The notes beneath the pieces are model-generated. The model was not told the DNA's origin. It saw nothing but the letters and a program-made list of their open reading frames with translations, and made no database searches. Shown here one piece after another: positions 1 to 48,467 of a stretch of DNA of 48,467 nt. Made by a program: the position numbers and the translations under genes. The DNA is taken from assembly GCF_004010195.1 (NCBI RefSeq), contig NC_057749.1:19627438-19675904 (forward strand), written 5' to 3'. Every line of letters starts with the position of its first letter. The stretch's first letter is position 1. This stretch comes from Chiloscyllium plagiosum. Its lineage: Eukaryota.

Positions 1-232
1 TTGTGTTTTACACATGAAAGAAGTGAAACTATCACTGTATTCTAACAGATGAAAGGCTTAACAGACAATCAACTTTTCAATGTATAATTTCAGTTACATC
101 ACACTGCAAATTTTTGCTATAAATTCTGTGTTACAATCGAGCCCTCCACAATCACCTGATGAAGGAGCGTCGCTCCGAAAGCTAGTGTGCTTCCAGGTTG
201 GACTATAACCTGATGTTGTCTGATTTTTAACT
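1..232 (+). mobile_element. Penelope-like element terminal repeat (pLTR) fragment, tail-less, running off the window start
   Basis: Nearly identical to 6570-6810, which adjoins a GIY-YIG C-terminus. Contains a hammerhead motif at 151-190. Confidence 0.8.
151..190 (+). ncRNA. Minimal type I hammerhead ribozyme motif (PLE-associated)
   Basis: CAC-CTGATGA(156-162)-A-GGAGC-GTC-GCTCC-GAAA(177-180)-GCTA-GTG: core boxes, 5-bp helix II, palindromic AGCT helix III, CAC/GTG helix I. Confidence 0.7.
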
Positions 233-476
233 ATGTTAGTAAGAGCATGTATTAAATGATTGTTCCTGACTACAACTAGTTACTTCAGCCTGTATTCAGA
301 TTTCAGATCCTCAGTTCCAGGAGTCGCTCCGAAAGCTAGTGTGCTTCCAGGTTGGACTATAACCTGATGTTGTCTGATTTTTAACTATGTTAGTAAGAGC
401 ATGTATTAAATGATTGTTCCTGACTACAACTAGTTACTTCAGCCTGTATTCAGATTTCAGATCCTCAGTTCCAGGA
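169..476. repeat. Perfect 154-bp tandem duplication (169-322 / 323-476)
   Basis: Both copies read GTCGCTCCGAAAGCTAG...CTCAGTTCCAGGA with no differences seen. Confidence 0.95.
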
Positions 477-4370: not shown

Positions 4371-4561
4371 TTAAACAATATTAGTGGCAGTGGTCCTCAT
4401 CTATCTCTTCACATTACATAATAGCTTACTTAACCTGTTACATATAAAGATTGCTCTTGGAAGCTTTCCTTACCGATTGAAGTACTCTGTTTTCATGGAT
4501 CTGTGCAAATAACCTTGTGGTTATTGTAAGTCTCTTATCTGACACAGTTCCACTCTCTAGT

Positions 4562-4768
4562 TAAAAATCACACAACACCAGGTTATAGTCCAACAGGTTT
4601 AATTGGAAGCACACTAGATTTCGGAGCGACGCTCCTTCATCAGGTGATTGTGCAGCGTCGCTCCGAAAGCAAGTGTGCTTCCAATTAAACCTGTTGGACT
4701 ATAACCTGGTGTTGTGTGATTTTTAACTTTGTACACCCCAGTCCAACACCGGCATCTCCAAATCATGA
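4562..4768. mobile_element. Non-coding fold-back PLE mini-insert with 12-bp TSD
   Basis: Two inverted pLTR ends, the right one extended by a ~40-nt tail. TSD CCACTCTCTAGT at 4550-4561 and 4769-4780. Minus-strand hammerhead motif at 4611-4650. Confidence 0.9.
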
Positions 4769-5244
4769 CCACTCTCTAGTGGTTGTCACATGGCACTGCA
4801 CAACTTACACCGACATGAGAGGATTCTGTGGGGTGATTTGAGGCTGAGCAAAGGATATTCTCCTTCATGCGCCAACTGATAATTCTCCCTCAAGCAATAA
4901 TCCAGTCATTTCTGTTTCTGAGATTATGCATTTATTTGCCCTATCCTGTTTCCTACCGGAATACAGTGATGACCCTTTGAAAACCGTGAGAATGTTGATA
5001 TGCACAATTTGCTTGGTTCCTGAGCTTTTGTGATATGAATCACTGCAATTCAAGCTAAACCGTATCCTGAGACGATGAAAGTGTGCCATAATATTGGGTT
5101 AAATTACCAGTAAATTTAAAGCTTACATTGTGAGTTACCAAGCTGTAAACCAGGGCTGATTGAGCTGCCAATAGTATCGCTAGCCTTCAACATGCCTTCA
5201 ATTATTTTGTTGCAAAGCTGAAACCAAAATGTCTACTGTTTAAT

Positions 5245-6850
5245 GTTAAAAATCACACAACACCAGGTTATAGTCCAACAGGTTTAATTGGAAGCACACT
5301 AGCTTTTGGAGCGACGCTACTTCATCAGGTGATTGTGGAGGGCTCAATCGTAACACAGAATTTATAGCAAAAATTTGCAGTGTGATGTAACTGAANNNNN
5401 NNNNNNNNNNNNNNNNNNNNNNNNNNNNNNNNNNNNNNNNNNNNNNNNNNNNNNNNNNNNNNNNNNNNNNNNNNNNNNNNNNNNNNNNNNNNNNNNNNNN
5501 NNNNNNNNNNNNNNNNNNNNNNNNNNNNNNNNNNNNNNNNNNNNNNNNNNNNNNNNNNNNNNNNNNNNNNNNNNNNNNNNNNNNNNNNNNNNNNNNNNNN
5601 NNNNNNNNNNNNNNNNNNNNNNNNNNNNNNNNNNNNNNNNNNNNNNNNNNNNNNNNNNNNNNNNNNNNNNNNNNNNNNNNNNNNNNNNNNNNNNNNNNNN
5701 NNNNNNNNNNNNNNNNNNNNNNNNNNNNNNNNNNNNNNNNNNNNNNNNNNNNNNNNNNNNNNNNNNNNNNNNNNNNNNNNNNNNNNNNNNNNNNNNNNNN
5801 NNNNNNNNNNNNNNNNNNNNNNNNNNNNNNNNNNNNNNNNNNNNNNNNNNNNNNNNNNNNNNNNNNNNNNNNNNNNNNNNNNNNNNNNNNNNNNNNNNNN
5901 NNNNNNNNNNNNNNNNNNNNNNNNNNNNNNNNNNNNNNNNNNNNNNNNNNNNNNNNNNNNNNNNNNNNNNNNNNNNNNNNNNNNNNNNNNNNNNNNNNNN
6001 NNNNNNNNNNNNNNNNNNNNNNNNNNNNNNNNNNNNNNNNNNNNNNNNNNNNNNNNNNNNNNNNNNNNNNNNNNNNNNNNNNNNNNNNNNNNNNNNNNNN
6101 NNNNNNNNNNNNNNNNNNNNNNNNNNNNNNNNNNNNNNNNNNNNNNNNNNNNNNNNNNNNNNNNNNNNNNNNNNNNNNNNNNNNNNNNNNNNNNNNNNNN
6201 NNNNNNNNNNNNNNNNNNNNNNNNNNNNNNNNNNNNNNNNNNNNNNNNNNNNNNNNNNNNNNNNNNNNNNNNNNNNNNNNNNNNNNNNNNNNNNNNNNNN
6301 NNNNNNNNNNNNNNNNNNNNNNNNNNNNNNNNNNNNNNNNNNNNNNNNNNNNNNNNNNNNNNNNNNNNNNNNTAATGTGACATGAACCCAAGGTCCCGGT
6401 TGAGGCCCTCCCTATGGGTACCGAACTCTGTTATCTCACTTTTTAGATTAGAATCAATCTAAACATCAGGTCATAGACAGAGAACACAGGGTGCTAACAC
6501 CTTCAACATATTGTCTAGCTATCACCATTGTTCACAGCTAACCCGAGAATGCAACTTTAAAAAAAATGTTTTGTGATTTACACATGAAAGAAGTGAAACT
6601 ATCACTGTATTCTAACAGATGAAAGGCTTAACAGACAATCAATTTTTCAATGTATAATTTCAGTTACATCACACTGCAAATTGTTGCTATAAATTCTGTG
6701 TTACGATCGAGCCTCCACTATCACCTGATGAAGGAGCGTCGCTCCGAAAGCTAGTGTGCTTCCAATTAAACCTGTTGGACTTTAACCTGGTGTTATGTGA
6801 TTTTTAACTTTGTACACCCCAGTCCAACACCAGTATCTCCAAATCATGAC
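5245..6850. mobile_element. PLE insertion with inverted terminal repeats (gapped)
   Basis: Minus-strand pLTR from 5245. Minus-strand FGTHREGLNRDLGFMSH (GIY-YIG C-terminus) at 6374-6426. Plus-strand pLTR with tail at 6427-6850. Near-TSD ACTGT(T)TAATGT at 5235-5246 / 6849-6859. Confidence 0.85.
6720..6758 (+). ncRNA. Minimal type I hammerhead ribozyme motif
   Basis: CAC-CTGATGA(6725-6731)-A-GGAGCGTCGCTCC-GAAA(6746-6749)-GCTA-GTG, core intact. Confidence 0.7.
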
Positions 6851-7974
6851 TGTTAATGTGATTCTGTGACTGGATAATAATTCCTGAACACTCCTGTGTA
6901 TGCTAATATCTACATTAAATAACAATTTAAGATAATCAGACAAGCTTGCTGGAAGCAATATACATTCTTAAACAGAGACCTGCTCTCTGCAAACAAAAAA
7001 AAAGGAATATGGTCCAGTCTTTGAATGTAAAACTTGGGTGGTGGGGGTGGGGGTGCTATAGTTCCTAGTTGTTTTCATCATGGTAATGCCTCATGCCAAT
7101 CAAGGTCAACTTGCCAACCATTCAACACCTTTTTGTCCAGTAGTATGAATATATGTACTCATTTAAAATTTGGCATTCTTGTATTTGTCCTGATGAATGC
7201 AAAATGAAAGCTTCTGCTCTTTTTTAGTAATATTCAGTAATCCTGCATATGTGTGTGTACATGCACACGCGCGCGTCCACATCAGTCCTTCATATCTATA
7301 CCTGCATAAGTCTGAACTAACTTGCATGTGTGGATGATGTTGCTTTTCTTTTCCTGTGCTACTGTGTGATAGAGTGCCCTGAGGAGCTGGTAGTGTACTG
7401 GTAATGTAGAGTGTGTGTATGCTTCTCAAATACCTGTTTTTGACAACACTATACTGCAGGAGGTTTCACTGGGGTGTGGTCCCTTTGGCTGCTGCCTCTG
7501 TAACTTGCTGGGTTTGGCCAGCTCTCTGGGTAACTGCTGGAGCTCAGTGCTTGGATCTCCATTGAGGAGAATTTGAAGTGCCTTATTGGTCCATACTGAA
7601 AGTTGCTGACATGTTAAAAAACATTAACAGAAGAGTTCACAGCACTTGTGTCCATCAAGGAGGTACAGCTCTCACAATGAGCTTCCAGAGCTTGCAGATG
7701 GAGAAGGAGTCACTCTGTATCTCTAAGCTTCTCCACTTCTTTCCAGCCTTTGTGATTTTAGTTGTTTTTTCCTTCAACCTTCTTAGTAAAATGCAGGCTT
7801 CAGTGGTGGACCTAACTACCTCAGCTTCCATACCAGTATCTTCCCAACTTGCATTTATATCGCGCATTTTTAATGGGATGTGGGCATTGTTGGGAAGGAC
7901 AGAATTTGTTGCCCATCCCTAATTGTCATTGAACTGATTGGCTTCATTTCAGTGGGTAATTAAGAGGGTCTGAG

Positions 7975-15086: not shown

Positions 15087-15735
15087 TCCTCAATTTGAAC
15101 AACTACTTCTCCTTTGACTCCTTTCACTATCTTCAAATAAAAGGTGTGGACATGCATACTCGTAAGTGCCCCAGTTATGCCTGTTTCTTTGTAGGTATGT
15201 GGAATGTTCCTTGCTCCAGTCTTATTCAGGCCCCACTCACAACTCTTTCGCTGGTACAACAATGTCATCAGTGCTGCTTCCCTGTCTCATCCAGAATTGA
15301 AAAATTTAATCAATTTTGCTTCCTGCTTCCAACTTCCACCCTGCTTTCACTTTCACCTGGTCCATCTCTGACTCCTCCCTTCTCATCCTTAACCTCTTTA
15401 TTTCCATTTCTGGGGATAGGCTGGCCATCTATATCCACTGCAAACCCACTGACTCCCATAGTTACATTGACGATACATCCTCACACCTTGCTTTCTGTAA
15501 AGACTCCATTCCACTATCTCAGTTCCTCCAGTTCTGTTGCATCCGTTATGATGATACCAGCTTCCACAGCAGGGAGCGGGGTGAACCTTCAAAACATTCA
15601 CCTTTTTTCCTCAACTGATAACTCTCTACTAATGTAGTTGACAGACTCTCAGATGTGTCCAACCCATCTCCTGCACTTTTGCCCTCATCCCTTTTCTTCC
15701 CACCCACAGCACTGATCGGGTCCCCCCCGGTCCTA
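15087..15735 (+). mobile_element. PLE reverse transcriptase fragment
   Basis: NYFSFDSFHYLQIKGV...PSYACFFVG, then NFHPAFTFTWSISDSSL...KPTDSHSY...SSH...KDSIPLSQF. Confidence 0.9.
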
Positions 15736-16574: not shown

Positions 16575-17365
16575 CCCAATTCCTGTTCTCTTTAACATTC
16601 TACCCAGTCTAATTCTACTCTTCACTGTCAGTTCCATTTCCCCAATATCCCTTTAATATTCCATCCGGTCTAAATCTAACTCTGCCATTCACTCACTCTA
16701 CCTAATAATATCCCAACCAATCTATCCAGACTCCTGTTCATTCTCAGTATCCTTAAATATTCCCCAGTCTAATCACACTCTCCGTTACTCCCTGCACACT
16801 TTAATATCCCACCTTCCCCATCCTGAAGAAGGGCTTATGCCTGAAACGTCGATTCTCCTGCTCCTCAGATGCTGCCTGGACTGCTGTGTTTTTCCAGCAC
16901 CACATTTTTCAACACCTTCCCCATCATGCCTTACACCCTTTACTATCCCACCCAATCTGATTCCACACTCACCCTCACATCCCCAATCCTTTAATATCCC
17001 ACCAAAACTAATTCTCACAGCCACTCTACTCCCTATCTACCTCCCCTCCCTGTACACTTTGATATCTCACCGTCTAAAACCACTCTCTCCCTTCACTTTC
17101 CACACCCTTTAATATTTCAAGCAGTCTAATCCTACTCTCATGCTCACTCCCTGTACCCGTAATATCCTACACTCCCTTCACTTCCTAGACTCTTAGCTTT
17201 CCCACTTAGTCCAATTCTACTCTGCCGACACCATTTAATATTCTACTTAGTCTAATCCCCTCTGCCTCTTACTAGCTGCACTTTTCATCCCGGCCAGCCT
17301 ATCACCACTTCTGCTCATTTCCTCTGCCCTTTAGTACACAGCCTATCTAATCCTATTCTGTCCCT
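16575..17365. repeat. Degenerate pyrimidine-rich minisatellite (~45-50 bp unit)
   Basis: Recurrent CCAGTCTAAT(C/T)CTACTCTC...CTCCCTG.AC.C.TTAATAT.CC blocks. Confidence 0.7.
16823..16912 (+). mobile_element. 90-bp hammerhead-bearing PLE-derived insert with 13-bp TSD
   Basis: Begins CTGAAGA-A-GGGC-TTAT-GCCT-GAAAC-GTC-GAT. TSD CACCTTCCCCATC at 16810-16822 and 16913-16925. Confidence 0.85.
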
Positions 17366-17449: not shown

Positions 17450-18857
17450 CACCTTTCACCTCACCAGCCTTCACATGCAAAGAATAATCCTCGGTCATTT
17501 TCGCCAACTCCAACACGACGCCACCACTAAACACATCCTCCCTTCCCTCCCCCGTCTGCATTCCGCAGAGATCGTTCCCTCCGGGCAACCTAGTCCACCC
17601 CTCCATCACACCTAACACCTCTCCCATCACACACGGCACCTTCCCATGCAAGGTGCAACACCTGTCCTTTTACCTCTTCCATGCTCATCATCCAAGGCCC
17701 CAAACACTCATTTCAGATTAAGCAGTGTTTTACTTGTACCTCTTTCAATTTGGTCTATTGCATTTGTTGCTCCCAATGTGGTCTCCTCTATATCGGAGAG
17801 ACAAAACGCCGACTGCGTGATCGCTTTGCTGAGCGCCTTCGGTCTGTACGCAATCAGGTCCCGAACCTTCCCGTGGCTTGCCTCTTCAACACACAATCCT
17901 GCTCCCATGCCCACGTGTCTGTCCTTGGCTTGCTGCAATAGAACATAGAACATAGAAGAATACAGCGCAGTACAGGCCCTTCGGCCCTCAATGTTGCGCC
18001 GATCCAAGCCCACCTAACCTACACTAGCCCACTATCCTCCATATGCCTATCCAATGCCCGCTTAAATGCCCATAATGAGGGAGAGTCCACCACTGTTACT
18101 GGCAGGGCATTCCACGAACTCACGACTCGCTGAGTAAAGAACCTACCCCTAACATCTGTCCTATACCTACCCCCCCCTTAATTTAAAGCTATGCCCCCTT
18201 GTAATAGCTGACTCCATACGAGGAAAAAGATTCTCACTGTCGACCCTATCTAAACCCCTAATCATCTTATACACCTCTATCAAGTCACCCCTAAACCTTC
18301 TTTTCTCCAATGAAAACAACCCCAAGTGCCTCACCCTTTCCTCATACGATCTTTCTACCATACCAGGAAACATCCTGGTAAACCTCNNNNNNNNNNNNNN
18401 NNNNNNNNNNNNNNNNNNNNNNNNNNNNNNNNNNNNNNNNNNNNNNNNNNNNNNNNNNNNNNNNNNNNNNNNNNNNNNNNNNNNNNNNNNNNNNNNNNNN
18501 NNNNNNNNNNNNNNNNNNNNNNNNNNNNNNNNNNNNNNNNNNNNNNNCTACCCTTCTCCCCTGTTTTCCATTTTGCCTCTGCTTCAGCCCTCCCACCCAT
18601 CCCCTACATATTTTGTCACATAGCACTGGCTTCAGCCTTGGTCATTCACAGCTCCTAATCTCCCTATAATCTCTCTATGCACTGTCATTATCACCTCTTT
18701 ATTGATACCTTTGCTTCTGGAGCCATGACTCACCTTCTCAGCCTAGTATAAATACCTCCCTATTTCCCCCTTTTTTTAGCTTTGACAAAGACTTGAAACA
18801 TCAGCTCTTTTCTCTCCTTACAGATGCTGAGATTTTCCAGCATTTTCTCTTTTGGGG
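17450..18857 (+). mobile_element. 5'-truncated PLE (GIY-YIG endonuclease plus pLTR) with a nested CR1
   Basis: FTCTSFNLVYCICCSQCGLLYIGETKRRLRDRFAE at 17681-17938. pLTR at 18547-18857. TSD TCCACATTCT at 17440-17449 and 18858-18867. Confidence 0.88.
17939..18386 (-). mobile_element. Young CR1 3' end nested in a PLE, running into a gap
   Basis: MFPGMVERSYEERVRHLGLFSLEKRRFRGDLIEVYKMIRG with a (TAGAACA)n tail. Confidence 0.93.
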
Positions 18858-26033: not shown

Positions 26034-26242
26034 CAGGAGAAAGTGAGGACTGCAGATGCTGGAGATCAGAGCTGAAAATGTGTTGCTGGAAAAGCGCAGC
26101 AGGTCAGGCAGCATGAAGAAGGGCTTATGCCCAAAACGTCGATATCATTCCTGAAGAAGGGCTTATGCCCGAAACGTCGATTCTCCTGTTCCTTGGATGC
26201 TGCCTGACCTGCTGCGCTTTTCCAGCAACACATTTTTAGCTC
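26034..26242. mobile_element. 209-bp fold-back PLE mini-insert with tandem hammerhead motifs and 14-bp TSD
   Basis: 34-nt tail at 26034-26067. 47-bp inverted arms at 26068-26114 / 26197-26243. TSD TGGGCTAAACCTTT at 26020-26033 / 26243-26256. Confidence 0.92.
26147..26182 (+). ncRNA. Minimal type I hammerhead ribozyme motif (intact core)
   Basis: ATTC-CTGAAGA(26151-26157)-A-GGGC-TTAT-GCCC-GAAAC(26171-26175)-GTC-GATT, with an ACGT palindrome and a GUC cleavage triplet. Confidence 0.78.
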
Positions 26243-27345
26243 TGGGCTAAACCTTTACCCAGCTACCTTTTTTGCTTTTTGCTATTGACTTTTCATGACC
26301 CCTTTTAGCACTTCTAATTCCTTAAGTTCTTTCCTACTTTGTTATGTACTTCAAGGGCTTCATCAGTTCCCAACCTCCTAGACTTTCCTTTTTCTTTCTG
26401 ACTAAGGTCATAACATCCCCAGTCATGCAAGGTTCATATAACTTGCCATACCTATTCTTTACACCACAAGAACGTGCCACTCCTGAATTCTTATCAATTG
26501 CCCTTTGAAATACTCTCAGATTTGTAGATTTATCCTCAAACCACGTCCAATCAAATTTCTCCAGTTCCTGCCTAATATTGTTGTAGTTCGCCTTTCCCCC
26601 AGGTTAACACCGAGGACTGCTGTTATCCCTATCCATGAGTATCTTAAAACTTACAGTATTATAGTCACTACTCCTGAAGTGCTACCCCACTGAAACTTCA
26701 CTCACCTAGGTGGGCTCATTTCCCAAAATCAGGTCCAGCATAACCCCTTCCCTGAATGGATTGTTTTCATACTGTGTTGAGAATCCCTCCTGAATGGTCC
26801 TGAGAAATTCTGTCCCATTCAAGCCCCTAGGACATAGCGAGTCCCAGTCAATACACTCCTTGGTTCATTGGCCTATCTGATGCCGTGAGCTGCCTGGGAC
26901 CTGAAAATCTGGAATCCCTCCTTTGCTTAAACCTCTTCACCACTATCTCCCTTTTTAATATCTGTCTTAAAGTCCACCTCAGTGGCCAAACTTTGGATCA
27001 TCTGATCTAATATTTATGGGGCTTGGTGTCCCATAATGTTCCCACAGGTTCATAATGTTCCTGTGGGGCCCCTTGGGATGGTTTGTTCGGTTAAAGAAGC
27101 TATACAAACATAACCTGTTGTTTCATGTTTTGGAACCGTCATGTGGAAGGATGTGCAATGTTGGTGGGGTGGAGTTGATGGGAAGTGAGGAGCAGGTCAG
27201 GGCTGCTGCTGAGCTTGAAATGCAGCAGCTCACAGCCTCACATTGACTGTTAAACAGGAGTTCTCTGGTCAAGCTGAAGACAGTCAGCAAGTGCACAAAA
27301 TGCCTCTGACTAGACAATGCTTAATTCTGTCTGACTGGCAGCTCC

Positions 27346-35435: not shown

Positions 35436-35650
35436 TCGTCAAAAATTGTGATGCTGGAAAAGCACAGCAGGTCAGGCGGTATCTGAGGAGCAGGGGAAAT
35501 CGACATTTTGAGTGTAAGTCCTTAATCAGGCTTATGGCCAAAAGTGTTGATTATTCTGCTCTGTGGATGCTGCCTGATCTACTGTCCTTTTCCAGCCCTA
35601 CACTATTCAACTCTAATGTCCAGCATCTGCAGTCCTCACTTTCTCCTCCA
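35436..35650. mobile_element. Older fold-back PLE mini-insert with 14-bp TSD
   Basis: Inverted arms plus a CCAGCATCTGCAGTCCTCACTTTCTCCT tail. TSD GCTC(A/G)AATCCATCA at 35422-35435 / 35651-35664. Confidence 0.8.
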
Positions 35651-38824: not shown

Positions 38825-40910
38825 AAAAAAACAAATTGCTGGAAAAACTCAGCAGGTCTGGCAGCATCTATGAAAAGAAATCAGAGTTAATGTTTCAGGT
38901 TCAGTGATCCTCCTTCAGAATTGAAGTTATTTAGGACAAGGTTGATATTTATGCAGAAGATGTAATGCAGGAGAGTAAACGATGGGTTGAGATTGAGCCC
39001 AAGGAGAGAGAAACACAGTTGGACAAAGGAGTGGTTAAAAATCTGTCTGGGGGAATGAATAGCTGCTAATGGGTACTATTAATAGCTGACAATATGTCTG
39101 GTAGTAACCCATGTGATGAGAAGGCCTGGTGTATAGGGGTTGGGGTAAGGCCCTCAAAACCTAAAATTGTTGAACTCAATATTAAGTTTAGATCAGAGTG
39201 GTGCTGGAAAAGCAAAGCAGGTCAGGCAGCATTCAAGGAGCAACAAAATCAATGTTTTGGGCAAAAGCCCTTCATCAGGAATAGAGGCAGGAAGCCTCCA
39301 GGGTGGAGAGATAAANNNNNNNNNNNNNNNNNNNNNNNNNNNNNNNNNNNNNNNNNNNNNNNNNNNNNNNNNNNNNNNNNNNNNNNNNNNNNNNNNNNGG
39401 GTGGGGATGGAGGTGATAGGTCAGAGGGGAGGGTGGAGCGGATAGGTGGAAAGGAAGATTGGCCAGTGGGACAAGTCATGAGGATGGTGCTGAGCTGGAA
39501 GGTTGGAACTGGGGTAAGGTGGGGGGAAGGGAAATGAGGAAACTGGTGAAGTCCACATTGATGCCATGGGGTTGACGTGTTCAGAGGTGGAAGATGAAGC
39601 GAATGTGGCTGTGGTAGCGAGTCTGTTTCAGTACATGGTTGAAGAGCTTCAGGACAGAGGAGATGATCTGGGGGTTGCAGAGAGAGAGAGAGAGACTCAC
39701 AGATTCTTGTGGAGAGAGGAGGAGAACTTCTTCATGGTAGGCATCCTTGCAAGAACTCAATATTAAGCCCAGAAGGCTAGAGTGCCCAAACGGAAAATAT
39801 GGTGCTGTTCTTATAGCTTGCACTGAGCTTTACTAGAGCACTGCAGAAGGCCTGAAGTGGAGATGTTGGTGAACACAATGGTGTGTTGAAGTGGCAGGCA
39901 ACTAGAAACTCAGGGTCTTTTTTGCAGATAGAACCATAGGTGTTCTGCAAAGCAGTCACCCAGTCTATGCTTAGTTTCCCCAATGTAGAGATCACATTGT
40001 GAGCAATGAGTATAGAAGACTAGACTGAGTGAAGTGCAAGTAAAGCATTGCTTCACCTGGAAGGTGTGTTTAGAGACTTGGATAGTGAGGAGGGAGGAAA
40101 TAAACAGGCAGGTGTTACACCTTCTGCAAAAGCAGGAGAAAGTGTGGGAACATGGAGGAATGGACCAGAGTGTCCTGGAGGGAATGGTCCCTGTGGAAGG
40201 CTGACATGCGAGGGGACGGGTGGTGTTTGGTGGTGGCATCCTGTTGGAGGTTGTGGAAATATCAGCTTGAGGACATGTGGGACCCTATTGTTGTTGTGGG
40301 AGGGAAGAGAGGGTTTGAGGGCTGAAGTGCAGGAGAGAGGTTCAACCTGGCTGAGGGTCCTGTCAACCACAGTGCTGGGGAGTCTTCAGTTGAGGAAGAA
40401 GATGGAGATATTGGAGATCCCTTATTGAAATTGGTATCATCAGAACAAATGCGAGGAACTGGGAGAATGGAATAGTGTCTTTACAGGAAGCAGGATGTGA
40501 GGATGTACAGTCAAGGTATCTGTGGGAGTTGTTGTATTTGTAGTGATATTGGTGGCCAGCCTATTCCCAGAAATGGAAACAGTTATGAGGAAAGGGAAAG
40601 GAGGACTCAGGATGGATCAGGTGAATGTGAGAGCGGGGTGGAAATTGGAAGCAAACTAGACAAAACTTCTCCAATTCAGGAGGAGACACACCAATGATGT
40701 CATTGATATGTTGGAGAAAGAATTGTAGGTGAGGGCTGGAGTAGGACTGGAAGAGGGGATATTCCACGTACCCAACAAAGAGACTAGCATAACTCATGGC
40801 CATCTCTCCAACTTGAAGGAAGTGAGAGGAGTTAAAAGAGACGCTGTTGAGGGTGAGAATGAGCTTGGCCAGGCGGAAGTGAGTGGTGGTGGATGAGGAT
40901 GGTTCAGGCA
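38825..40910 (-). mobile_element. Decayed PLE (RT, GIY-YIG and pLTR) interrupted by a nested PLE
   Basis: SYASLFVGYVE (RT) and FTCTSLSLVFYTHCSQCDLYIGETKHRLGDCFAEHL (GIY-YIG). Hammerhead-like CTGAAGGAGGATCACTGAACCTGAAACATT on the minus strand near 38890-38920. Confidence 0.88.
39187..39752 (-). mobile_element. Internally deleted PLE nested in a PLE, 15-bp TSD
   Basis: TSD GAACTCAATATTAAG at 39172-39186 / 39753-39767. LKLFNHVLKQTRYHSHIRF is joined to QPHGINVDFTSF, followed by a pLTR with CTGATGAAGGGCTTTTGCCCAAAAC. Confidence 0.82.
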
Positions 40911-44013: not shown

Positions 44014-45732
44014 GAAAGCAAAGGTTATTAGGTTTCATTCATAAAATTAGATTGTTTTGTTGTTTAACTTTGCTCTGCTAAAGTTATTGTATTGCGAATA
44101 AATTGTTAAGCCTTTTGTTTAAGCTATAAACCTGGTGTCTAGTGTCAGTTATTCACAACCCATCTGGAATCGGTGAGGAATCATTGGGTCAATTTTGAGG
44201 GTTGTTAACTTTTTTAATTTTACAATATTGTGAATACAAAGGTAGGGAGGCTGATTTGATTCTGCTGCCTATCTTTGTGTCATAGCACAATAACTCTCAG
44301 AGTTGATAAATTGTTCCTAACTAGACTTTATATATAAACAGGTCTTGGACACCAAGTTTATAATTTAAACAAAAATTAACAATTTTTCATTCATGTAATT
44401 TTAATGGAACACAGATAAGCAACAAGGCACTGTTATTAATTCCTATGACCTTAAGCCTAACCTTCTTTGATCACAACCCCAACTCATATATAGTGACAGT
44501 TAAGGGATATGTTAAAAAGAAAAGAAAATAATTGTAATTTGCCAGCTCATTAAACGGTTTCAAATGATGAATATCAGGCCTTCAGAAATCCGTGGTCAAT
44601 GGTTTGTGGAAAGGGAATTAGATCGTGCTTGAATTCCTAAAAAAACACTCGTGGCATATTTCCTATCCACAAAGAGCAACCTTCTGCACACTTCAATGCT
44701 GTACCTTGGGATACAGCTGCAACTTATAGACTCATCGAGATGTACACTGTTAGTGTTATGCTGTGCTAAGGAACAAGCACTAAGCATGTGGATTGAACAG
44801 GCTGCATGTCCAGCCTGTTTGCTTGCTGTCATAACTCTGAATCACTCTAAACCTACCTGGATGATACAAACATGCCTGCCTTGAATTGTCTTGTCTTTTT
44901 GCACTTTGCCCCTCAGCCAGAGATACTGGACTCACAGTAGTGATATATATATATATATATATTAATATATATTTGTCTTGCCACTTAACGTACAGTCAGC
45001 AGTCCTCAGTGAATTCAAAGGTGATAGCCTTTTTATCAGGATTTTATCAGGTAAAATAAAAGCAAGGACACGCACTGATGCCAGCCTAGGTGCTCAAGCA
45101 TGATAAGTAATCTGCTTGGGGCAATCTAAGTTAGGATCATCTCCCTATAAAGGGTGAGAAGTGAATCAGGCAGCCCACCATCTATCTCGAGTCTTTCTGA
45201 TCTCTTGTGGGCTGTTTTCCTTCTGAAATGAGAGCAATGCAAGGTTGAAAGAGATGAAAGTGGTGGCACAGTGAATTACTTTTTGTGCTGGTGTGGAGGT
45301 GCCCCCAGTAAATGAGTGGGCAGCGCTCTTACCTTCTTACTGTACATTCCTCCAGATGGCTGAAACTGACTGACCAAGATGACAACCTCAGACAAAGCTG
45401 GCATTGTCTAGCATTATGGCTTCCACTGGAATAAGAGGACTTTCTGCCTGTGCACCAATCCCATCCAGCAGCGCCTCCAAGTCACCATCTTTAAAATGGG
45501 GTGCCAAATCTCTCATCTGCTATGCACAAGACAAATGTTAGGAAACATGCACTGAAGCTCCAGACTGTGTGTGTCTGGGTGTAAAACAGATACTTAAATA
45601 TGACATTGGCACCAAAAATGCTGTCAACGTGAAGATATCCTAGCAGTGGCGAGTTGTTCTGAATGGTTGGTACTAATATTAGAATCTGACAAGAGGAGTG
45701 TTGGTGGGGAGGGTTTGGTAGTTAATGAAGTA

Positions 45733-45931
45733 AGAGTTGATAAAGTGTGGCACTGGAAAAAGCACAGCAGGTCAGGCAGCATCTGAGGAGGAGGAGAACC
45801 AATGTTTAATCAGTCCTGCCTGAAACTTTGATTCTTCTCAACCTCGGATGCTGTCTGACCTGCTGTGCTTTTTCCAGCGCCACATCTTATTGACTTTGAC
45901 TCTCCAGCATCTTCAGTCCTCATTATCTCCT
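45733..45931. mobile_element. Fold-back PLE mini-insert (older)
   Basis: Inverted arms CTGGAAAAAGCACAGCAGGTCAGGCAGCATC / GATGCTGTCTGACCTGCTGTGCTTTTTCCAG plus a tail. TSD unclear. Confidence 0.78.
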
Positions 45932-47901: not shown

Positions 47902-48120
47902 GGGAAAAGTATTAGGCCTTTGTTGTTGCTGACTTGATATACAAGTTTGCCCCAGCCCTCCAATCCCTCTGCTCCAATCCCGACCTCACCATCAAGCCAG
48001 CGGATAAAGGGGGAAAGTATTAGGCTTTGTTGTTGCTGACTTGATATACAAGTTTGCCCCAGCCCTCCAATCCCTCTGCTCCAATCCCGACCTCACCATC
48101 AAGCCAGCGGATAAAGGGGG
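47902..48120. repeat. ~109-bp tandem duplication spanning a flank/PLE junction
   Basis: GGGAAA(A)GTATTAGGC(C)TTTG...GCGGATAAAGG occurs twice with two single-base indels. Confidence 0.92.
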
Positions 48121-48467
48121 CGCAGTGGTAGTCTGGCGCACTGACCTCTACATCGCTGAAGCCAAACGCCAACTTGAGGACACCTCTTCCTACCGCCCCG
48201 TTGACCATGACCCCACCCCCCATCACTAAACCATCATCTCCCAGACCATACACAACCTCATCACCTCAGGAGATCTCCCACCCACAGCTTCCAACCTCAT
48301 AGTCCGGGAACCCCGCACTGCCCAGTTCTACCTCCTTCCCAAGATCCACAAGCCTGACCACCCTGGCCGACCCATTGTCTCAGCATGCTCCTGCCCCACC
48401 GAACTGATCTCTATCTACCTCGACACTGTCCTATCCCCCCTAGTCCAGGAACTCCCCACATACATTC
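48056..48467 (+). mobile_element. Young PLE reverse transcriptase N-terminal part, running off the window end
   Basis: LTIKPADKGGAVVVW...[26 protein letters not shown] in one frame with one stop at 48227-48229. Confidence 0.93.

Follow-up and report, generated by a model that had tools for sequence, protein, structure and literature searches.

A minimal hammerhead motif and a nearby poly(A) site in probable Penelope-like element terminal repeats of Chiloscyllium plagiosum

The DNA analysed here (the window) is a stretch of 48,467 nucleotides from Chiloscyllium plagiosum (NCBI RefSeq assembly GCF_004010195.1, contig NC_057749.1, positions 19,627,438 to 19,675,904 of the forward strand). Read directly from the plus strand, positions 153-187 are CAC-CTGATGA-A-GGAGC-GTC-GCTCC-GAAA-GC-T-A-GTG, a minimal type I hammerhead motif that recurs at 6722-6756 (+) with all 35 nucleotides the same; a preliminary description of this DNA, made from its letters, had placed the two copies at 151-190 and 6720-6758, and both are confirmed. 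In hammerhead numbering, helix I comprises 3 bp (153-155 with 185-187), the catalytic core CUGANGA ... GAAA ... NUH is present at 156-162, 177-180 and C182-U183-A184, the extra nucleotide that minimal hammerheads (min-HHRs) carry between positions 9 and 10.1 is A163, and helix II comprises 5 bp (164-168 with 172-176), closed by the pair G10.1-C11.1 (G164-C176). The junction runs A15.1-G15.2-C16.2-U16.1 and then A17, with the palindrome AGCT at 180-183 and the predicted cut after A184 (after A6753 in the second copy); the AGCU palindrome, the CUA triplet and the cleavage position had thus been read correctly. Mutated minus-strand copies, earlier noted near 4611 and 5296, lie at 4646-4612, where a change of G15.2 to U abolishes the palindrome, and at 5331-5297, where G10.2 of helix II has become U and core position G12 has become A. 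Beyond these, we found additional copies of the 3' half at about 320-390 (+) and at 4654-4769 (+), the latter with U16.1 changed to A. The closing pair G10.1-C11.1 is retained in all six rows compared, and the palindromic 15.2/16.2 without loop 3 in five of the six, the exception being the 4646 copy.

Sequencing reads and contigs show variation around this core. About one third of them have a different loop II (G6738A with T6739G), and C6745T, which turns the closing pair into G-U, occurs in 10-20%. No variant at a core position appeared among the 40 variant rows listed of 172 from reads over 6380-6880.

The motif copies reside in fragments of a Penelope-like element (PLE). The first is carried by a copy of the 3' UTR or pseudo-LTR (pLTR) at 1-236 (+), which continues past the window start, is 92% identical to 6571-6813, lacks a tail and has lost its ATTAAA signal to an 8-nt deletion. 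It runs into an exact 154-bp tandem duplication at 169-476 (+; 169-322 repeated as 323-476), which contributes a second AGCT-A-GTG half-site at 334-341 and may be either a recent duplication or an assembly artefact. This duplication begins in loop II, and would place a further AGCU-A-GUG strand in cis, with its cut after A338. At 4559-4769 lies a head-to-head inverted insertion bounded by an exact 12-bp target-site repeat; its minus arm holds the hammerhead with the broken palindrome (4646-4612), and its plus arm the 3' half and a tail. A further inverted unit, at 5242-6850, is bounded by a repeat that, as read from the flanks, matches at 11/12 bp with one indel. It joins a 5'-truncated minus-strand arm (5242-6410; endonuclease C-terminus, N gap at 5396-6372, 3' UTR, the damaged hammerhead at 5331-5297 and a tail-less end) to an inverted plus-strand arm (6411-6850; 3' UTR, intact hammerhead, poly(A) signal and tail). 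The coding remnant, on the minus strand at 6375-6410, encodes the C-terminal end of a GLNRDxGFMSHY-type GIY-YIG endonuclease, a 13-residue stretch identical at 10 of 13 positions, from 6410, to the best of 120 database proteins; loose ends at 6427 in both DNA runs carry the endonuclease frame about nine family-typical residues further upstream by hand translation. A tblastn match joining 6572-6375 (E 1e-4) was disregarded, being gapped across the inversion. Because the target-site repeats bound the whole of 5242-6850, we treat its endonuclease C-terminus and two motif copies as one insertion, in which the link from endonuclease to 3' UTR crosses the N gap spanned by the minus arm.

A 39-bp "tail" (6812-6850 and 4731-4769, +) marks a single arm of each inverted unit, the partner arms having none, and about 95 nt extend from the motif to the end of the repeat. 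An adjacent inverted copy and a one-sided tail of 30-40 bp are among the PLE hallmarks given in the consulted portions of two published descriptions (PMC8557442, PMC3846280). Within the window there is no complete RT-endonuclease ORF of this AGCU family, of which only the last 13 codons are present; its copies share one 3' end, are truncated to nested extents from the 5' side, and are dead or passive truncated or inverted PLE fragments. The repeat is also present in the sequencing runs of four organisms.

Introns are known in PLE pLTRs. Stretches resembling a 3' splice site, with a branch-point-like sequence, pyrimidines and CAG, occur in both hammerhead families of the window (6800-6822 and 26196-26226), 45-70 nt past the cut; no splice matching such a stretch was present among the 15 joints listed of 50 in reads over 6380-6880. 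We also considered the tail-less ends as marks of intron branch points, a reading dropped because the arms of the second family do not end there. Elsewhere, at 9.8-12.9 kb, 23.4-25.2 kb and 31.0-33.7 kb, the window holds many dispersed copies of other repeats (families D2-D15), which we take to resemble CR1/LINE 3' ends.

The second hammerhead family, for which the preliminary description had reported an ACGU palindrome and a GUC triplet, is present at 16820 and 26148 as CUGAAGA-A-GGGC/GCCC-GAAA-CG-U-C, with decayed copies elsewhere in the window. Its helix II has 4 bp and a 4-nt loop, as against 5 bp and a 3-nt loop in the AGCU family. Head-to-head palindromic insertions of the ACGU family occupy 26064-26248, 45729-45901 and 35438-35607, two of them yielding spurious Rfam miRNA matches. 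Decayed remnants of RT and GIY-YIG endonuclease from other PLEs are found at 15098-15573 (+), 17567-17932 (+), 39937-40908 (-) and 47955-48466 (+); the remnant at 39.7-40.9 kb is upstream of a minus-strand ACGU-family copy at 39282, which ties that family to a different endonuclease type.

To gauge the specificity of the motif we compared two patterns. A loose one matched the window 14 times, with a mean of 4.21 and a maximum of 9 in shuffled sequence, none of 100 shuffles reaching 14. A strict descriptor (helix I of at least 3 bp, helix II of at least 4 bp, palindromic 15.2/16.2, and UH) gave three matches in the window, at 156, 6725 and 16823, the last belonging to the ACGU family; it had no match in any of 300 dinucleotide shuffles of the window, and none of 120 viral loci matching the bare core pattern passed it. 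Nor did the family pattern match in viral and prokaryotic genome contigs. The preliminary description had proposed a search with Rfam hammerhead models, which failed to recover the motif: a scan of the whole window, including the ACGU-family copies, gave no match to any hammerhead family with E of 1 or below, and we infer that the Rfam models miss minimal motifs of this kind. The four Rfam miRNA matches obtained are spurious hairpin artefacts, three of the four sitting on long palindromes.

Scanning of metagenomes, marine or other, retrieved three related loci (L001, L002 and L003). L003 encodes a GIY-YIG endonuclease with a CxxxCxxC linker, followed by a 3' UTR and a hammerhead at 1331-1365; the endonuclease has no Pfam match, shares 43% identity with an RT-endonuclease protein from a turtle, and has database relatives in which RT and endonuclease stand together in one ORF. 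L001 belongs to the same family as L003, with a hammerhead at 967-1001 and an inverted RT fragment (Pfam RVT_1, E 1.5e-5, below cutoff), and L002 has a frameshifted endonuclease end and then a hammerhead that combines AGCU with U17. A search with the endonuclease alignment revealed no viral relatives. Over the 35-nt motif, L003 is identical to the window copy at 33/35 positions and L002 at 29/35, as against 13-21/60 in the ungapped 60-nt flanks, or 33-39/60 with gaps where shuffled flanks give 30-32. The motif is therefore a conserved island between flanks near the shuffle level, and in keeping with the preliminary description the core is far more conserved between families than the surrounding pLTR. 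This near-identity between unrelated flanks may reflect strong constraint or past horizontal transfer. L002 and the window additionally share a stretch around the poly(A) cleavage site (39/60 with gaps, 32 when shuffled). Covariation among six AGCU-type rows, the three ACGU-family rows being left out, consisted of a single double change, from A-U to U-A in helix I of L002, and a lone G-U pair in helix II. It agrees with the proposed structure but was not significant, 73 of 500 shuffles scoring as high.

All four published min-HHR hallmarks are present in 153-187, and we conclude with considerable confidence that the motif is a min-HHR in the pseudo-LTR of an endonuclease-bearing PLE, probably of the Neptune type. 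Its assignment to a PLE terminal repeat, already made in the preliminary description, is borne out by the unit at 5242-6850 and by loci L002 and L003, and for the 153 copy by the 92% identity of its 236 nt. The Neptune label probably holds, going by the CX2-5CxxC linker seen in the relative L003; that part of the AGCU-family ORF lies outside the window, and the linker is common to Neptune and Nematis. Chance resemblance to a hammerhead, for which one might cite the lack of an Rfam match and the roughly four loose core matches to be expected in a window of such size, is refuted to near certainty by the clean record of the strict descriptor in 300 shuffles and 120 viral core matches, and by an island 33/35 identical between unrelated flanks. 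It might also be supposed that the repeat represents a non-autonomous family, SINE or retrozyme-like, and not the terminal repeat of an autonomous PLE, since most window copies are short, no complete ORF accompanies them, and animal retrozymes and PLE pLTRs share type I hammerheads in the available text of bioRxiv 2026.07.22.740005. We regard this as highly improbable: endonuclease-coding sequence is enclosed by a single target-site repeat pair in the unit at 5242-6850, the copies are graded truncations from one 3' end, and the window contains no tandem full units each with a hammerhead.

Like the window motif, the min-HHRs of Cervera and de la Pena (PMC4209133) have the CUGANGA-H core, the extra nucleotide between 9 and 10.1, G10.1-C11.1, palindromic 15.2/16.2 without loop 3, a short helix I, a position in the pLTR, and U-rich 5' and AU-rich 3' flanks; that set holds no shark representative, and we found no discussion of poly(A) sites in its accessible text. 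Neptune-type EN+ PLEs (Craig et al. 2021, PMC8557442) are described with a C-terminal GIY-YIG endonuclease and a CX2-5CxxC linker, as in L003, and, as in the window, with an adjacent inverted 5'-truncated copy, a one-sided tail and a canonical pLTR hammerhead, the comparison of coding regions being limited by the near absence of the window's own ORF. PAc, the Poseidon PLE of Anolis carolinensis (Frangieh et al. 2024, PMC11167929), likewise has a pLTR hammerhead, a tail of 30-40 bp bounded by two sites, downstream of that hammerhead, at which reverse transcription starts, AT-rich targets, and no RNA-seq ends at the cut. It differs in that its ORF starts within the hammerhead, whereas the only ATG inside the window motif runs into a stop after 7 codons, and in that the AGCU-family relative has the cysteine linker of the Neptune/Nematis type. 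Animal non-LTR retrozymes (PMC7229834; bioRxiv 10.64898/2026.07.22.740005) resemble the window in having a type I hammerhead that works as a dimer, and an origin from PLE pLTRs has been proposed for them; unlike the dispersed truncated or inverted PLE ends described here, they form tandem arrays with a full hammerhead in every unit.

The preliminary description had called the junction unusual. In the portion of the min-HHR work accessible to us (PMC4209133) the consensus is GAAAN-palindrome-NU-H, and the palindromic 15.2/16.2 is listed as a defining feature. We counted the 56 representatives of Cervera and de la Pena by hand from PDF-extracted text: the 41 without an inserted loop comprise 29 CG, 5 GC, 5 UA, 1 AU and 1 CA; the AGCU palindrome is found in 5/56 (Adineta vaga (2), Philodina, S. 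mansoni (1) and (3), and the turtle Chrysemys), A17 in 6/56, and the CUA triplet in one, that of the shrimp Marsupenaeus. Only the exact minimal combination GC-U-A is missing from these 56. Judged from the aligned sequences, the AGCU/CUA junction is not unusual and falls within published variation; at 15.2/16.2 the palindrome tolerates G-C in place of C-G, and the AGCU state may be common to a PLE sub-lineage that includes turtles. Compensatory change between the two families of the window, also claimed earlier, stands in part. The G-C/C-G swap is a genuine double substitution in the helix formed by the dimer, but one that belongs to published covariation; the difference in helix II does not qualify as clean compensation, because one inserted A-U pair or two swaps explain it equally well. 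CUA obeys the NUH rule and falls outside the pair GUC and GUA, the fastest natural triplets in the consulted part of PMC3138052; our literature search found no measured rates of CUA cleavage. The main paper on dimer cleavage of such variants is reportedly that of Lunse et al. 2017, which may include GC-U-A junctions.

In this class of motif a single copy cannot close helix III, and we propose for this reason that two copies pair AGCU with AGCU. The first RNA copy would supply the core and helix II, the AGCU of the second would pair with it over 4 bp, and the second copy would be cut after the A of CUA. By analogy with the anole element, the reaction would probably be slow and probably dependent on PLE protein; helix I of the AGCU motif has just 3 bp, and published min-HHRs are reported to cleave poorly even as dimers (PMC4209133, in part). 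Nearest-neighbour folding gave -16.3 kcal/mol for the hammerhead-shaped dimer versus 2 x -8.1 kcal/mol for its monomers, with an inactive, arm-swapped helix II dimer preferred at -30.3 kcal/mol, and in the cis 1.5-mer at 153-341 the hammerhead-shaped fold (-38.4 kcal/mol, against a minimum of -46.8 kcal/mol) was not favoured. Because the programs ignore tertiary contacts of the core, these energies are weak evidence in either direction.

A poly(A) site adjoins the predicted cut at 6765-6810 (+). It consists of ATTAAA at 6765-6770 (AATAAA in many copies), beginning 12 nt past the cut of the 6722-6756 copy, a point of tail addition near 6783-6785 and a GU/U-rich stretch downstream. Such a layout, with an upstream hexamer, a tailing site and a downstream GU/U-rich stretch, is that of the usual metazoan poly(A) site. 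When reads of four runs were mapped to 6380-6880 at 85% likeness, 1,204 of the 3,755 mapped reads (32%) of X21, a polyA single-cell library of organism C (possibly a species other than that of the window; about 2% of the run was read), had A-run loose ends about 30 nt past the cut. These began behind 6781 (584 reads), 6785 (482) and 6756 (138, from a variant lacking 2 nt), counted among the loose ends listed, beyond which lie 944 further rows, and may include A-rich genomic variants. The genomic sequence at the tailing point is not A-rich, and depth in the main (sense) read direction fell by 71% across it in X21, compared with 7% and 18% in two DNA runs. The evidence from X21 is that of one sample, whose sister run X22 gave 0 mapped reads, and its reads pool many copies and may derive from host transcripts. 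Taken together, the A-tailed reads and the layout of the poly(A) site indicate that tails are added shortly beyond the motif to RNAs whose hammerhead has not been cut. Most motif-bearing RNAs stay uncut, and many of them acquire a poly(A) tail some 30 nt beyond the cut site. We saw no pile-up of read ends or starts at the cut in X21, a polyA library that could hardly show one.

Similar signals accompany other hammerheads of this class. AATAAA stands 19 nt past the cut in L001 and L003, and of the 56 published motifs, counted by hand, 9 have AAUAAA and 2 more have AUUAAA within the approximately 15 nt shown beyond the cut, in lineages that are not independent; 1-3 of 56 would be expected for AAUAAA under assumed base compositions. 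The hexamer is missing in L002 and in the ACGU family of the window, as well as from the 153 copy. We found no paper linking PLE hammerheads to polyadenylation in a search of literature open without subscription, two mentions in one review being left aside; the string "polyadenyl" has 0 occurrences in PMC2377424 and PMC3846280.

How far these observations bear on function depends on whether the motif cleaves at all. It may have been kept, as a PLE-derived hammerhead, for a role without cleavage, such as a binding site for PLE protein, a promoter or a start element. Work on the anole PLE, in the sections available to us (PMC11167929), gives this some support, in that hammerhead mutants had no effect on insertion in vitro, no cleavage occurred without protein, and RNA-seq reads neither started nor ended at the cut; in our data about one third of mapped polyA reads stop 30 nt beyond the site with no pile-up of ends, and the dimer fold has no computed advantage. 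Against it, conservation between hosts falls on the catalytic core, the G10.1-C11.1 pair and the pairing of helices I and II, N17 varies within H only (A here, U in L002), and the anole motif does cleave when protein is present, mutants of C3 and G8 abolishing the cleavage (PMC11167929); we accordingly consider a non-cleaving role unlikely. It is very doubtful, too, that the AGCU/CUA junction marks a functionally distinct class, for instance one letting co-resident families dimerise only with their own kind. By sequence logic AGCU and ACGU cannot cross-pair at two central positions, both families occur in one window, the AGCU duplex has a computed score 0.8 kcal/mol more stable than that of ACGU, and exact GC-U-A is absent from the 56 published representatives; yet AGCU and A17 have been published separately in unrelated animals (5/56 and 6/56), A17 is not tied to the AGCU palindrome because L002 pairs AGCU with U17, and differences in helix I already separate the two families.

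Returning to the motif as a cleaving min-HHR, tailing some 30 nt past the cut means that cleavage would separate the RNA from its poly(A) tail. We tentatively raise the possibility, which we consider rather improbable at present, that hammerhead and poly(A) site form a module in this and many other PLE lineages, in which cleavage would strip the tail, so that the RNA would no longer serve as a polyadenylated message for translation. Such cleavage is predicted to be triggered by dimer formation or by PLE protein. As the putative starts of reverse transcription (6811 and 6850) come after the poly(A) site, only read-through RNA would, under the module reading, be copied into insertions.

The AGCU family described here adds one more to a described class, both features of its junction being already in the published alignment. 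Two families with swapped palindromes in one genome, together with a 33/35-identical motif in a distant host, provide a natural comparison for the dimer model. A poly(A) site in use 30 nt past the cut suggests a role in control of RNA 3' ends, a suggestion that would gain weight if it held across PLEs; were it true, host transcripts would also gain 3' ends open to conditional cleavage from the very numerous genomic copies.
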